64,000 nt of DNA from a virus. The stretch lies in IMG/VR virus record IMGVR_UViG_3300020166_000747. One strand, written 5' to 3'. The notes below the pieces were generated by a model. The model ran no database searches. It worked only from the letters and a program-made list of their open reading frames with translations, and was not told where the DNA came from. Made by a program: the position numbers and the translations under genes. Positions 40,560 to 58,552 of the stretch are shown here, one piece after another (within the stretch, counting starts at the first letter, position 1; the number at the start of each line of letters is the position of its first letter).

Positions 40560-41153
40560 ATGAAGAAAATTTTGATTACCGGTAACAGAGATTACGGTCT
40601 TTGTCAAGCCATATGCAACATGTTTGATGACAATGGTTATGTGTACGAATGTGCAAGTCGCGCAACAGGGTGGAGTTTAGATAAGAATGAAGATCAGGTA
40701 CGACTTGCAAATCACTACGTAATGAATAATTTTAATGTATTCATTAATAACTCTGCTATGTGGAAATTTCACCAAATCATGATTGCTGAACAAATGTACA
40801 ATGCTGCAAATTTAGCACAAGTTAAATCACAGTTCATTCATATGGGATCAACTGCTGATACAGGTGTACGTGGTAGGACTTGGAGATACCCAACCGAAAA
40901 GAAAGCGTTACGTGATTACAACCGCGATTTGACTTATATGACAATGGGCGGATCTAATATAAAAACTACACTGTTATCGCCGGGTAGTTTAACAACGCCG
41001 AGTGTGATGAAAAAGCACCCGGACCGGGCTTTAATCGATGTTGAATACATCGCAGAGATAATTTTATGGTTGCTTAATCAACCAGAATATGTTAATATTA
41101 ATGAAATTAGTTTAGATCCAGTACAGTCTGGAGCTTATGCAAGAGAGAGGTAA
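40560..41153 (+). CDS. Short-chain dehydrogenase/reductase-like protein
   Basis: ILITGNRDYGL (Rossmann variant), INNSA, MGS, YPTEK (YxxxK), SPG. Confidence 0.75.
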   Translation: MKKILITGNRDYGLCQAICNMFDDNGYVYECASRATGWSLDKNEDQVRLANHYVMNNFNVFINNSAMWKFHQIMIAEQMYNAANLAQVKSQFIHMGSTADTGVRGRTWRYPTEKKALRDYNRDLTYMTMGGSNIKTTLLSPGSLTTPSVMKKHPDRALIDVEYIAEIILWLLNQPEYVNINEISLDPVQSGAYARER

Positions 41154-41158
41154 GTTGG

Positions 41159-42955
41159 TTGCTAAAACTAAAGAATATAACAATCCGAAACTTCATGAGT
41201 GTCGGCAACGTCACTCAAGCCATCGATTTAGAAAGAGATTCACTATCACTAGTATTAGGTAATAACCTAGACTTGGGTGGTGATGGTTCCCGTAATGGCA
41301 CTGGTAAGACTACTCTTATCAATGCTCTATCGTATGCTCTATACGGTAATGCACTTACAAATATCAAAAAGAATAACCTAATCAATAAGACTAACGGTAA
41401 AGGAATGTTAGTCACTTCTGATTTCGAATATAATGGTAATGAGTATCGCATTGAACGTGGTCGCTCTCCTAACGTTTTTAGATTGATGCGTGATGGCATT
41501 GATATTAATGAAACACAAGATGAAGCGCAAGGTGAAATGCGACAAACGCAAATTGAAGTTGATTCAATTATTGGCATTTCACATAATATGTTTAAGCACA
41601 TTGTTGCACTAAACACATATACTGACCCATTCTTGTCAATGAGGCCTAATGATCAACGTGAGATTATCGAAGAACTCCTTGGTATCACTGAACTTTCTAG
41701 AAAAGCAGATAACTTAAAAGATGAAGTTAAAGCTACTAAGGAACAAATCAAAGACGAAGAATATCGTTTGAAAGCTATCGAAGATGCTAACTCACGTATT
41801 CTAAAATCTATCAAAGATATTGAACGTAGACAACGTATCTGGACTGAAAAGCATGATAGTGAGGTTAAAACCTTATCTTCTGCACTTGATTCGCTTTCTC
41901 ATATAAATATTGATGAAGAGATTAAGAACCAAGCTCTACTATTAGAGTATAATGAAAAGAAAACTCGTTTAGATGAAGCGGTACGTTGGATTAACAGTAT
42001 TGAAGCAGACGATACAAAACAAGAAAAAGTTATCTCTAAACTTGAAAACGAAATCAAGTTACTAAAAGAACACACTTGCTATGCTTGCGGTCAAGAAATG
42101 CACGATGATAAACAAGAAAGTATCCTCTCTGCAAAAGAAGAACAAAAGCAAGAAGCATCAATGCAGATTACTGCTAATAGTACACAACTAGAAGAACACA
42201 TGAAAATAGTTTCTTCTATTGGTGAACTTGGTGATAAGCCTGTAGTGTTCTACGATTCAGTTAACGATGCATATGAGCATCAAAACTCAGTTCGTCTATT
42301 AGAAGAACAAATTGAACAAAAGAAAAAAGCAGAAGACCCTTATGAGGATCAGATTAAAGAAATGCGTGAAAGTTCACTTGAAGAACTTGATTACTCACAC
42401 ATGAATACCCTTATATCTTTCCGTGAACATCAGGACTTCTTAATGAAACTACTAACCAACAAAGATAGTTTCATTCGTAAAAAGATTATTGACCAGAACT
42501 TGTCATTCTTGAACAAGAGACTAGAGCGTTATCTAGATAAACTTGGTCTACCACATGAAGTCAAGTTCCAAAGTGACTTGACTGTAGAAATCACAGAACT
42601 AGGCAGAGACCTAGACTTTGATAACTTATCACGAGGCGAACGTAACAGATTGATCTTAGGGCTGTCTTGGGCGTTCCGTGATATATTCGAATCACTCTAT
42701 TCAACAATCAACTGTATGTTTGTTGACGAATTGATTGATTCGGGTATGGACACTAATGGTGTCGAAGCATCACTTGCAATTCTAAAGAAAATGGTACGAG
42801 ACAGTGGACGTTCAGTCTTCTTAGTTTCACACCGTGATGAACTTCAAGGACGTGTTAGTGATGTATTGAATGTAGTAAAAGAAAATGGGTTCACTACATT
42901 CGCACAAGAAACAGAGACACTAGAACCCGGTGTTGAATTAGATTTAGTCATTTAG
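41159..42955 (+). CDS. gp46: Recombination ATPase, gp46/SbcC/Rad50 family
   Basis: NFMSVGN, Walker A NGTGKTT, CYACGQ zinc hook, LSRGE signature, FVDELID, VSH. Confidence 0.92.
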   Translation: MLKLKNITIRNFMSVGNVTQAIDLERDSLSLVLGNNLDLGGDGSRNGTGKTTLINALSYALYGNALTNIKKNNLINKTNGKGMLVTSDFEYNGNEYRIERGRSPNVFRLMRDGIDINETQDEAQGEMRQTQIEVDSIIGISHNMFKHIVALNTYTDPFLSMRPNDQREIIEELLGITELSRKADNLKDEVKATKEQIKDEEYRLKAIEDANSRILKSIKDIERRQRIWTEKHDSEVKTLSSALDSLSHINIDEEIKNQALLLEYNEKKTRLDEAVRWINSIEADDTKQEKVISKLENEIKLLKEHTCYACGQEMHDDKQESILSAKEEQKQEASMQITANSTQLEEHMKIVSSIGELGDKPVVFYDSVNDAYEHQNSVRLLEEQIEQKKKAEDPYEDQIKEMRESSLEELDYSHMNTLISFREHQDFLMKLLTNKDSFIRKKIIDQNLSFLNKRLERYLDKLGLPHEVKFQSDLTVEITELGRDLDFDNLSRGERNRLILGLSWAFRDIFESLYSTINCMFVDELIDSGMDTNGVEASLAILKKMVRDSGRSVFLVSHRDELQGRVSDVLNVVKENGFTTFAQETETLEPGVELDLVI

Positions 42956-42965
42956 GAGAAATAAT

Positions 42966-43142
42966 ATGACAGTAAGCGAACAAATTGAAGAACAAATGGC
43001 TGTATACTTGAAAGAGTCAGAAGCATTTGAAACTAAGGGCGTAAAGGCTGCCGCAGCCCGTGCTAGAAAAGCATTGGGTGAACTTGGTAAACTTACAAAG
43101 GCGCGCCGAGCAGAAATTCAAGAAAAAAAGAACAATATGTAA
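42966..43142 (+). CDS. Histone H1-like (Hc1-family) small basic protein, 58 aa; absent from the ORF track
   Basis: AGGAG RBS; MTVSEQIEEQMAVYLKESEAFETKGVKAAAARARKALGELGKLTKARRAEIQEKKNNM. KG.KAA..RARK is characteristic of Hc1-like proteins. Confidence 0.75.
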   Translation: MTVSEQIEEQMAVYLKESEAFETKGVKAAAARARKALGELGKLTKARRAEIQEKKNNM

Positions 43143-43143
43143 T

Positions 43144-43179
43144 TTAACACTTGACATGTGGTGTTGAAACTGCTATATT
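43144..43179 (+). promoter_or_regulatory. sigma70-type promoter of the candidate sRNA
   Basis: TTAACAC-TTGACA (43151-43156), N17, TATATT (43174-43179). Confidence 0.8.
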
Positions 43180-43185
43180 AGTATT

Positions 43186-43297
43186 AATAAAGAAGTGAAG
43201 TGTCTCCTCTCAACCTCTCTCAACTATCGGATCTTCTTTATTGTTTCAACACAGAGCATGAAACAACCCGGTGCATCTCTGATGCATCGGGTTTTTT
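43186..43297 (+). ncRNA. Candidate small RNA, three hairpins, CU-rich anti-SD-like loop
   Basis: Starts at the expected TSS; stems AATAAAGAAG/CTTCTTTATT and TGTTTCA/TGAAACA; ends in a terminator. Confidence 0.6.
43265..43297 (+). terminator. Rho-independent terminator
   Basis: AACCCGGTGCATC-TCT-GATGCATCGGGTT running into a T6 tract. Confidence 0.85.
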
Positions 43298-43316
43298 AAT
43301 AGAAGGGATAAAGATT

Positions 43317-43505
43317 ATGAGTGTAACTGGAAATCTACCAAGAAAGACCGACGAAGAAACTGATGAAATGAAAAAAGAAATTGAAAAGTTTCTTAAAAAA
43401 GGCGGCAAGATTAAAAAGATCGAAGAAGGTGAATTCACCGAAGCAAAGGATATGAAATACAAATTTCGTAAGCCAGCTTTTCCGAAAAAGAAAAAAGAAG
43501 ACTAG
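43317..43505 (+). CDS. Small protein resembling the SutA RNAP-binding motif
   Basis: MSVTGNLPRK...EMKKEIEKFLKKGGKIKKIEEG; AAGGGA RBS; start placed after the terminator. Confidence 0.55.
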   Translation: MSVTGNLPRKTDEETDEMKKEIEKFLKKGGKIKKIEEGEFTEAKDMKYKFRKPAFPKKKKED

Positions 43506-48809: not shown

Positions 48810-48838
48810 TTGACATGTACTCAAAAACATGTTAATAT
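48810..48838 (+). promoter_or_regulatory. sigma70-type promoter upstream of portal
   Basis: TTGACA (48810-48815), N17, TAATAT with TG extension. Confidence 0.6.
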
Positions 48839-48858: not shown

Positions 48859-50550
48859 ATGGCAACTTGGAAAAAATACTTTAAAACATACGATGGTCTC
48901 CCACAACGAGACTCGTCATCGTCTAATCAAGGATCGGAAGCATCCAATAAGCGTTATAGCAGTTGGTTACCTGAAGTTTATCAGGGACAACCAAACCGTG
49001 TGCAACGTTATGGGCAGTACGACCAAATGGACTTAGATAGTGAAGTGAATGCGGCATTGGATATTATTGCTGAATTTTCAACACTACAAGATGAAAACTC
49101 TAGGTTGCCATTTAAGTTTGACTTCCCAGAAGATCCAACTGAATCTGAGAATGATGTTCTACAGCGTACACTACGACAGTGGTGTTCAGTTAACGAAATG
49201 AACAAACGTGTTTTCCGTATCTTCCGAAATGCCATTAAGTACGGTGACCAAATCTTTGTTCGTGATCCAGAAACATATAAACTATTTTGGGTCGATCCTG
49301 CTAAAGTAGATAAAGTAGTTGTCAACGAAGGCAAAGGCAAGAAAGTAGAAGCATATTATATCAAAGATATTGATATCAATATGGAAAGTATGAATATCAC
49401 TGCCGATGCAAACAAACTTACACAAACAGGTGCAGGTGCATCAGGTATGCCTAACTTGAATAGTAATACTACTCAAGGTTATACTGGTGGTTCGGCAGGC
49501 GGCTCACGTTTCGCAAACGACCAATCATCTACGCCAGTAGATGCGGCACACGTTATTCACATTTCATTGAATGAAGGTATCGATGGCTTCTGGCCTTTTG
49601 GTACTTCTATTCTTGAACCAATCTTTAAAGTATATAAACAAAAAGAACTACTAGAAGACGCTATTCTAATATATCGTGTACAACGTGCGCCAGAACGTAG
49701 AGTGTTCTATATTGATGTTGGTAACATGCCAACACACAAAGCACGTGCGCACCTAGAGCGTATTAAGAATGAAATTCATCAAAGACGTATTCCAAGTAAG
49801 ACTGGTGGCGGACAAACTGTTACTGATAGTGCTTACAATCCACTATCAATTATGGAAGATTACTTCTTTGCACAAACAGCAGAAGGTCGTGGTTCTAAAG
49901 TTGAAACACTACCAGGCGGTGAGAACTTAGGACAAATCGATGATTTGAAATACTTCAATGACAAGTTATTACGTGGTTTGCGTGTTCCAGCTTCATACTT
50001 AGGTGGTATGGATGACGGCGGAGCAACAGTTAATGATGGTCGTGTAGGTACAGCAATGATTGCTGAATTTAGATTTACAAAGTTTTGTGAGCGTTTACAA
50101 GCACTTATTGTTGAACAACTAGACAACGAGTTTAAGATGTTCTGTAAAAATCGCGGCGTACAAGTAGAAAGTTCGCGTTTCTCATTACAATTTAATACTC
50201 CTCAGAACTTCGGCAAGTTCCGTCAAGCAGAAGTAGACCAAGTTGCTATGAATGTATTCTCAAGTATCGAAGGTGCGGACTATATTAGTAAACGTTTTGC
50301 ACTACAGCGTTTCTTAGGACTAACAGAAGATGAGATCCTAGAAAATGAAAAGCTATGGCGCCAAGAAAACGGCGACACCGATGAACTTGCAGGAGCAAGT
50401 GACAATCTTAAAGGTGTCGGGGCAGCTCCTTCTCCTGATGACTTAGGTGGGGGCGATGATTTTGACTTCGATGAAACTGATCAAGATGATACAGATGACG
50501 GTTCACCGATATCTGGTGCAGAAAACGCAGAAACAGACGAAGAAGTATAA
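48859..50550 (+). CDS. gp20: Portal protein, T4 gp20-like
   Basis: EDAILIYRVQRAPERRVFYIDVGNMP, MEDYFF, GRGSKVETLPGGENLGQIDDLKYF. Confidence 0.95.
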   Translation: MATWKKYFKTYDGLPQRDSSSSNQGSEASNKRYSSWLPEVYQGQPNRVQRYGQYDQMDLDSEVNAALDIIAEFSTLQDENSRLPFKFDFPEDPTESENDVLQRTLRQWCSVNEMNKRVFRIFRNAIKYGDQIFVRDPETYKLFWVDPAKVDKVVVNEGKGKKVEAYYIKDIDINMESMNITADANKLTQTGAGASGMPNLNSNTTQGYTGGSAGGSRFANDQSSTPVDAAHVIHISLNEGIDGFWPFGTSILEPIFKVYKQKELLEDAILIYRVQRAPERRVFYIDVGNMPTHKARAHLERIKNEIHQRRIPSKTGGGQTVTDSAYNPLSIMEDYFFAQTAEGRGSKVETLPGGENLGQIDDLKYFNDKLLRGLRVPASYLGGMDDGGATVNDGRVGTAMIAEFRFTKFCERLQALIVEQLDNEFKMFCKNRGVQVESSRFSLQFNTPQNFGKFRQAEVDQVAMNVFSSIEGADYISKRFALQRFLGLTEDEILENEKLWRQENGDTDELAGASDNLKGVGAAPSPDDLGGGDDFDFDETDQDDTDDGSPISGAENAETDEEV

Positions 50551-50904: not shown

Positions 50905-50974
50905 CTTTTGAAACAAAGAGTGTTTCTACAACCGCCACAGAAAGCAGTGGCTTTTTAGATAAGGAGACATTAAT

Positions 50975-58539: not shown

Positions 58540-58552
58540 AGGTTGAGAACTA

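Follow-up and report, generated by a model that had tools for sequence, protein, structure and literature searches.

A conserved small RNA gene with a pyrimidine-rich loop in uncultured giant phages (~340 kb), distant relatives of Pseudomonas phage PA5oct

The 64,000-nt stretch of DNA analysed here, of an uncultured marine giant phage (the window; from IMG/VR record IMGVR_UViG_3300020166_000747, which is 72.9 kb long with an estimated completeness of 20%) contains what is almost certainly a real gene for a non-coding RNA of ~112 nt, extending from position 43186 to about 43297. This small RNA (sRNA) is a new RNA family, supported by covariation and absent from Rfam, the design of which resembles that of known CU-rich sRNAs.

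The gene lies within the 174 nt that separate two open reading frames (ORFs) of 58 (42966–43142) and 62 amino acids (43317–43505), and all of its elements are on the plus strand. It is preceded by a sigma70-type promoter with an extended -10 element (43151–43179) that matches the consensus at 11 of 12 positions: TTGACA (43151–43156), a 17-nt spacer and TGcTATATT, in which TG occupies 43171–43172 and TATATT 43174–43179. Only three extended -10 sigma70 promoters were found in the 72.9-kb record, this one included. The other two are located at 48810–48838 of the window (plus strand), directly upstream of a 563-aa gene starting at 48859, and at record position 534 (minus strand), outside the window. 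Transcription is predicted to start at about 43186, at the first nucleotide of a 10-bp stem, P1, the arms of which were assigned from folding and covariation (5′ arm AAUAAAGAAG, 43186–43195; 3′ arm CUUCUUUAUU, 43233–43242). P1 encloses a pyrimidine-rich (CU-rich) loop, 43196–43232, with a mean unpaired probability of 0.81; it holds GUGUCUCCUCUCAACCUCUCUCAAC at 43200–43224, including two copies of CUCUCAAC, and its invariant core is GUGUCUCCUCUCAACCUCUCUCA (43200–43222). In the predicted fold the loop is followed by P2, a 6-bp hairpin (GUUUCA/UGAAAC, 43243–43264) with ACACAGAGCA in its loop, and by an intrinsic terminator (43265–43297) which consists of a 13-bp GC-rich stem with a 3-nt loop (43265–43293) and a T-run reaching 43297, with a helix probability of 0.96. 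Folding of a 115-nt RNA gave a minimum free energy of −33.1 kcal/mol (z = −4.35), and none of 200 shuffled sequences was as stable. A previous sequence-only reading of the window had described this anatomy (promoter, 10-bp stem from 43186, CU loop, second hairpin and strong terminator), and every feature of it was found in place.

The comparison of relatives strongly supports the view, at the level of sequence, that the RNA gene is under selection, with a strictly conserved loop and a covarying stem. Unanchored MAFFT alignments yielded no structure with RNAalifold, because the two arms of the stem were out of register, and they were replaced by a model (R1) in which P1 was specified by hand. 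In the alignment based on this model, which was fitted to the structure and is therefore biased in favour of P1, 8 of the 11 P1 pairs had changed on both sides and 94% of the cells were paired; the margin is nonetheless large, since only 25–58% were paired when the 3′ partner was slid by 1–3 columns and none of 500 shuffles reached the observed values. The loop core is identical at 23 of 23 positions, against 45–62% identity at synonymous third positions of the adjacent gene, which codes for an Hc1-like protein (see below). All 16 variant types keep a TTGAC(A/T) -35 element, a TG-extended -10 element, an unpaired CU loop, P2 and the terminator. The promoter spacer, as measured with a regular expression, is 17 nt in all types but one, where it is 18 nt, and the predicted mean unpaired probability of the pyrimidine-rich loop is 0.8–0.99 in most of the 16. 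A hairpin is present at the position of P2 in all variants, with differing sequences (UUCUCUGU/ACAGAGAG, UUCCCUAU/AUAGGGAA and GUCCCAU/AUGGGAC), and the terminator also varies in sequence between lineages while its stem is retained. The conserved part of the RNA is single-stranded and the stems vary freely: the conserved single-stranded seed and the helices kept by compensatory change that would be looked for in a trans-acting sRNA are both found here.

Some 60 viral contigs carry the unit, as do at least 30 contigs from marine metagenomes, with one copy per genome. Matches to the covariance model (P1 plus loop) had E-values from 1e-17 to 1e-3, with one copy per genome, including a complete genome of 342.6 kb. 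The exact 25-nt loop sequence was found in 6 other viral contigs, and a pattern search with the 23-nt core retrieved 30 marine metagenome contigs, Tara Oceans assemblies among them, all of which have the promoter and the terminator. The locus was also collected by anchoring on the upstream gene for gp46, an SbcC-like nuclease (n = 80; gp46 identity 95–56%). The core follows gp46 in ~45 of these loci, down to 74% identity, and it is identical in loci in which gp46 itself is only 74–95% identical. Loop conservation in relatives, a check proposed in the sequence-only reading, was in this way borne out, the 23-nt core being invariant among core-bearing relatives and the 30 marine contigs. Loci with a gp46 82–86% identical display the same position, promoter, stem, hairpin and terminator, with a shorter loop, UACCCUCUCAACUCUCAUU; UACCAUUCUCUCUAACU and UACCCUCACCCACUCUCAUU are further variants of this shorter-loop set. 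In loci with a gp46 identity of 65% or less, other genes follow gp46 and no such RNA was found. The loop variants all have one or two boxes of the (A/U)ACC-YCUCUCA type, that is (A/U)ACC and then a CUCUC-type run, usually terminated by A. The length of the stem-enclosed loop ranges from 19 to 37 nt and the spacing of the CU boxes from 7 to 10 nt between variants, with a single box in variant L028 and a differing first box in L143. One contig of 1,026 nt (L210, Ga0066364_10089418) starts 3 nt upstream of the predicted sRNA start and spans the terminator into the downstream genes; it was not counted as a transcript and was left out of the evidence. A search for the core in representative bacterial and archaeal genomes, covering 185,579 species, gave only three matches. 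These are 20-nt core matches located inside coding sequence of three Stahlbacteria/WOR-3 metagenome-assembled genomes and are attributed to chance, and a bacterial origin or host homolog was rejected on that basis.

The carriers of the sRNA are all uncultured phages of ~340 kb, distant kin of Pseudomonas phage PA5oct. This jumbo phage is the closest cultured one, with a gp46 identity of 51% and a similar gene order; a DNA similarity search against 50,697 phage records gave no match. Among related records, likewise uncultured, lengths extend up to 342 kb; a 342.6-kb one with terminal repeats is complete. Upstream of the sRNA are the genes for SbcD- and SbcC-like nucleases, the equivalent of the T4 gp47/gp46 pair. 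The 58-aa ORF (42966–43142, plus strand) codes for a histone H1-like protein of the Hc1 type (Pfam PF07432, 40.2 bits for a cutoff of 23.5). It is the usual upstream neighbour of the sRNA, with gp46 on its other side in most relatives, and is missing or swapped in L030, L037, L045 and L159; in the last three the upstream neighbour is a different one, and the promoter–RNA–terminator unit is intact throughout. The protein encoded by the 62-aa ORF (43317–43505, plus strand) resembles the SutA RNA-polymerase-binding domain, a borderline assignment by sequence as its Pfam score falls just under the cutoff (PF20661, 29.0 bits for a cutoff of 29.3, E = 6.9e-7). Its relatives have in common FLKKGGK...EG..T....YKFR(R/K) and a basic tail, and the basic YKFR motif is invariant. 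No homolog was detected with tblastn in any cultured phage among the 50,697 phage records. A homolog of this SutA-like gene is present 3′ of the sRNA in nearly all variant types, its start being 17–70 nt past the T-run.

This arrangement bears on the rather unlikely alternative that the RNA serves the SutA-like gene in cis as its leader, be it as an attenuator or as a put-like element that modifies the polymerase for read-through, the short RNA being a by-product. The put RNAs of the lambdoid phage HK022 are cis-acting processive antiterminators, structured from the transcription start, whose function depends on two stems. The present RNA may be likened to them in layout: in both, a structured RNA begins at the start of an early promoter and is followed by a terminator and genes. 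The proximity of the 62-aa homolog in nearly all variant types fits a leader as well. Moreover, inspection of the window and of the marine variants by eye revealed no sigma70-type promoter in the interval from the terminator to the SutA-like gene, so that in these types the gene must depend on read-through of the sRNA terminator and any read-through mRNA would also have the sRNA at its 5′ end. However, a second full sigma70 promoter (TTGACA-N17-TATGAT; L017:5134–5165) is present after the sRNA terminator and before the SutA-like gene in four lineages (L017, L020, L025 and L028 only), and an ATAAATA late-promoter-like motif occupies this interval in the L002, L021 and L023 types. In a 246-kb record, G004 (the record of L031), the Hc1-like gene is absent and a 285-aa gene with its own promoter places the SutA-like gene 1.2 kb away from the sRNA, the unit of which is nevertheless intact. 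The conserved part of the present RNA is, unlike the two stems of put, a single-stranded loop, and the element is kept in the lineages with their own downstream promoter. Nor is there a sign of attenuation: the helix probability of the terminator is 0.86–0.99 in relatives, no conserved competitor of the terminator helix was found across 7 variants, and when the 3′ arm was withheld the 5′ arm was unpaired in 3 of the 7 and otherwise formed local pairs that are not conserved. A classical riboswitch or transcription attenuator was considered unlikely on these grounds. By inspection, the loop has no conserved complementarity to the downstream ribosome-binding region either. The independent downstream promoters of the L017 type and the inserted gene of G004 argue, from sequence comparison, against an obligatory cis role. 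The sequence-only reading had named a mere leader of the gene at 43317 as the finding that would count against it, and the second promoter in some lineages and the inserted gene in one point the other way. As expected for a trans-acting sRNA, the unit has, on the sequence evidence, its own promoter and intrinsic terminator and does not depend on its neighbours. The inserted 285-aa gene (also L030:5329–6186) has an N-terminal KLDGIRC motif, which we take to be of the nucleotidyl-transferase (ligase) type.

The boxes of the loop are the complement of the purine-rich, Shine-Dalgarno (SD)-like sequences GAGAGG(U) and AGGAGA, and they resemble the anti-SD sequence of 16S rRNA, ACCUCC. Three complementary sites had been listed in the sequence-only reading (41143–41151, 50962–50969 and 58540–58548), with the caveat that matches of 8–9 nt could be chance. 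The sites exist and the caveat was justified, the number of matches being at chance level or lower: the phage DNA contains 7 non-self complementary sites of at least 8 nt, of which 2 reach 9 nt and none 10 nt, for a mean of 32 sites at k = 8 with composition-matched shuffled seeds, and the complements of the loop are not enriched. All 4 of the plus-strand matches of at least 8 nt in the record are on ribosome-binding sites. Duplex scans of five whole phage genomes revealed no outstanding or recurrent site, the matches being G-rich and non-recurrent. As specific targets, the site of the fibre gene (58540) was discarded, being unconserved in relatives, and so was that of the core gene, a generic and conserved strong SD (AAGGAGAC) with which loops of the L017 type, without GUCUCC, cannot pair. 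The earlier proposal accordingly loses these two targets and keeps, on strong comparative evidence, a self-contained phage sRNA with an anti-SD-like loop and a host-type promoter.

The best phage-internal candidate is the initiation region of gp46, GCAAGAGAGAGGUAAGUUGGUUG (41139–41161, plus strand), which has a TTG start and could form 9 bp with loop segment ACCUCUCUC; the putative duplex opposes this segment to GAGAGAGGU on the gp46 side. The region, GCAAGAGAGAGGUA followed by TTG, is conserved in almost all sRNA-bearing relatives. It is altered to CAGGGAGAGGAA in G002 and to a form 2–3 nt shorter in L036 and L038, and in the clade devoid of the sRNA it is replaced by unrelated regions with an ATG start. 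The TTG is preceded by a block, AGAGAGAGGUA, that does not vary in most relatives with the sRNA and that overlaps the stop codon of an upstream 197-aa ORF. Conservation of the region is explained even without the sRNA, because it is also the end of that ORF and the ribosome-binding site of a weak start codon. The 10-mer of gp46 is unique in the genomes of three relatives. When crude sets of predicted initiation regions from five genomes were ordered by their pairing with the cognate loop, gp46 ranked 1/64, 2/105, 9/86, 3/203 and 46/307, but these ranks are not independent since the genomes are related, and composition-matched shuffled loops equalled them in 11, 3, 33 and 2% of the trials for four of the genomes. 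Against the unchanged gp46 region, a loop of the L017 type forms only ~6 contiguous bp. Taken together, the gp46 initiation region (AGAGAGAGGU plus the TTG start) is a modest candidate and should be treated as a lead only. Complementarity to the 16S and 23S rRNAs of E. coli was at chance level and these were rejected as targets: the 16S loops are matched over 8 and 7 nt, and shuffled loops did equally well (P = 0.26–0.5). We assign the matched 16S loops to helices 12 and 13 of the E. coli structure. On the minus strand of G004, at ~217300–217333, 13–14 nt (GGAGGAGACACUCG) are perfectly complementary to CGAGUGUCUCCUC of the sRNA of the same phage. This site has no start codon at the usual distance, and ~0.15 such matches are expected by chance.

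We give about an even chance to the reading that the RNA acts in trans: independently transcribed, probably early, it would pair with purine-rich ribosome-binding regions, with gp46 as the best candidate within the phage. Transcription of the sRNA by the host RNA polymerase would start from the strong sigma70 promoter with its extended -10 element, probably at an early stage of infection, and stop at the intrinsic terminator, giving an RNA of ~112 nt. In this RNA the covarying P1 would hold open the pyrimidine-rich loop of 19–37 nt, followed by P2 and the terminator hairpin. The loop would then pair with the ribosome-binding regions of particular mRNAs and block binding of the 30S subunit; the initiation region of gp46, with its weak TTG start, is the best phage-internal target candidate, and host mRNAs are equally possible targets. 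Early timing, action in trans, repression of translation and the identity of the targets are what we infer from the features described above.

The same loop could instead be a decoy or sponge that titrates a pyrimidine-binding protein (S1, a cold-shock-type protein, Rho or Hfq), the SutA-like or Hc1-like phage protein, or a purine-rich host sRNA, with no mRNA repressed. We regard this as unlikely. In its favour, an invariance of 23 nt exceeds the usual length of a seed, and would also fit a platform for binding of a protein or of the ribosome; it extends across marine and freshwater phages which probably have different hosts; and no convincing mRNA target emerged in five phage genomes. In addition, the linkage of the RNA with the SutA-like gene persists even where the upstream gene has changed, and the product of that gene has the invariant basic YKFR motif (YKFRR tail). 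On the other hand, the sRNA and the SutA-like gene are 1.2 kb apart in G004, and inspection of the loop revealed no motif of a known bacterial RNA-binding protein, no GGA and no regular ARN repeat. The CU boxes also vary in number and spacing (7–10 nt; one box in L028, another first box in L143), whereas constancy would be expected of a defined protein site, and this variability fits modular pairing seeds better than a single fixed protein site. It is improbable, but conceivable, that the RNA is a general mimic of the 16S anti-SD sequence which, early and abundant, competes with ribosomes for purine-rich sites and biases translation during host take-over, maybe together with two small neighbouring early proteins, the Hc1-like DNA binder and the SutA-like RNA-polymerase binder. 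If that were true, an RNA-based device for host shut-off or reprogramming would be common to abundant ocean jumbo phages. As for the idea that there is no functional RNA at all and that the region is a hairpin arisen by chance, a gene for a small protein or an element acting at the DNA level, we find it scarcely credible. Two formal frames with a GTG start do cross the region, 43195–43299 (34 aa) and 43200–43505 (101 aa), where the sequence-only reading had seen no ORF; both are without a ribosome-binding site and are broken in relatives by 1–2-nt indels and by stops, and a small-protein gene was rejected for this lack of conservation. The covariation seen in P1 and P2 is specific to one strand, and the unit, with its conserved promoter and terminator, is single-copy and syntenic in dozens of diverged genomes, which also speaks against this idea.

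Searches of Rfam 15 at permissive thresholds with three variant types reached no family, the best scores being 18–34 bits for cutoffs of 39–180 bits. RF02278, the Betaproteobacteria toxic sRNA, is like the phage sRNA a short RNA with an intrinsic terminator, and the first 9 nt of its consensus (UGUCUCCUC) occur in the sRNA loop; membership was rejected, with scores of 18.4 (window), 21.2 (L017) and 22.2 bits (L034) against a gathering score of 50. RF02278 RNAs are ~60 nt long with two hairpins and a 5′ CU motif, and they are chromosomal and multi-copy in Burkholderia and relatives, whereas the phage sRNA is ~112 nt long with three helices, phage-borne and single-copy, its motif being in a large stem-closed loop and an extra hairpin being present. 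The interactions predicted for the Burkholderia 'double-hairpin' RNAs (RF02278; ncS03, ncS05, ncS27 and ncS62) span ribosome-binding sites, and growth is slowed when ncS27 is overexpressed (PMC5688073). Both these RNAs and the NmsR sRNAs of Neisseria have unpaired, CU-rich stretches that are complementary to ribosome-binding sites (PMC5688073, PMC4603805). The NmsR sRNAs, short RNAs with an intrinsic terminator and a CU-rich unpaired stretch, are alike in design to the phage sRNA.

PA5oct relies on the host polymerase and has four ncRNAs, with no function assigned, at 8.2, 22, 103 and 246 kb (PMC7318152, Table 1). Unlike the present sRNA, these are not beside gp46, which is at ~74 kb in PA5oct, and a search of the whole PA5oct genome with the covariance model gave no match; a homolog of the sRNA in PA5oct was rejected for both reasons. 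Trans-acting sRNAs encoded by phages or prophages are a recognised small class (review PMC12197685; example bioRxiv 10.1101/2024.10.31.621285). The present RNA has, like them, its own promoter and terminator, and it would likewise base-pair with host or phage mRNAs. The phage sRNAs characterised so far are, to our knowledge, few and come from temperate phages of enterobacteria (coliphages). The one described here differs in that it belongs to uncultured, apparently virulent, T4-like jumbo phages of ~340 kb, and it has no sequence relative among those characterised sRNAs and no match in the 50,697 phage records.

Regulatory RNAs have, as far as we know, hardly been explored in virulent and giant phages. 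The present family, with one RNA per genome and a loop that appears to be aimed at sequences like ribosome-binding sites, occurs in marine and freshwater phages of ~340 kb that form a widespread clade, and for this uncultured clade it provides an added marker. It also offers a concrete object, easy to synthesise, with which one can ask how translation is controlled by RNA in giant phages, be it the translation of host genes or of the phage's recombination nuclease.
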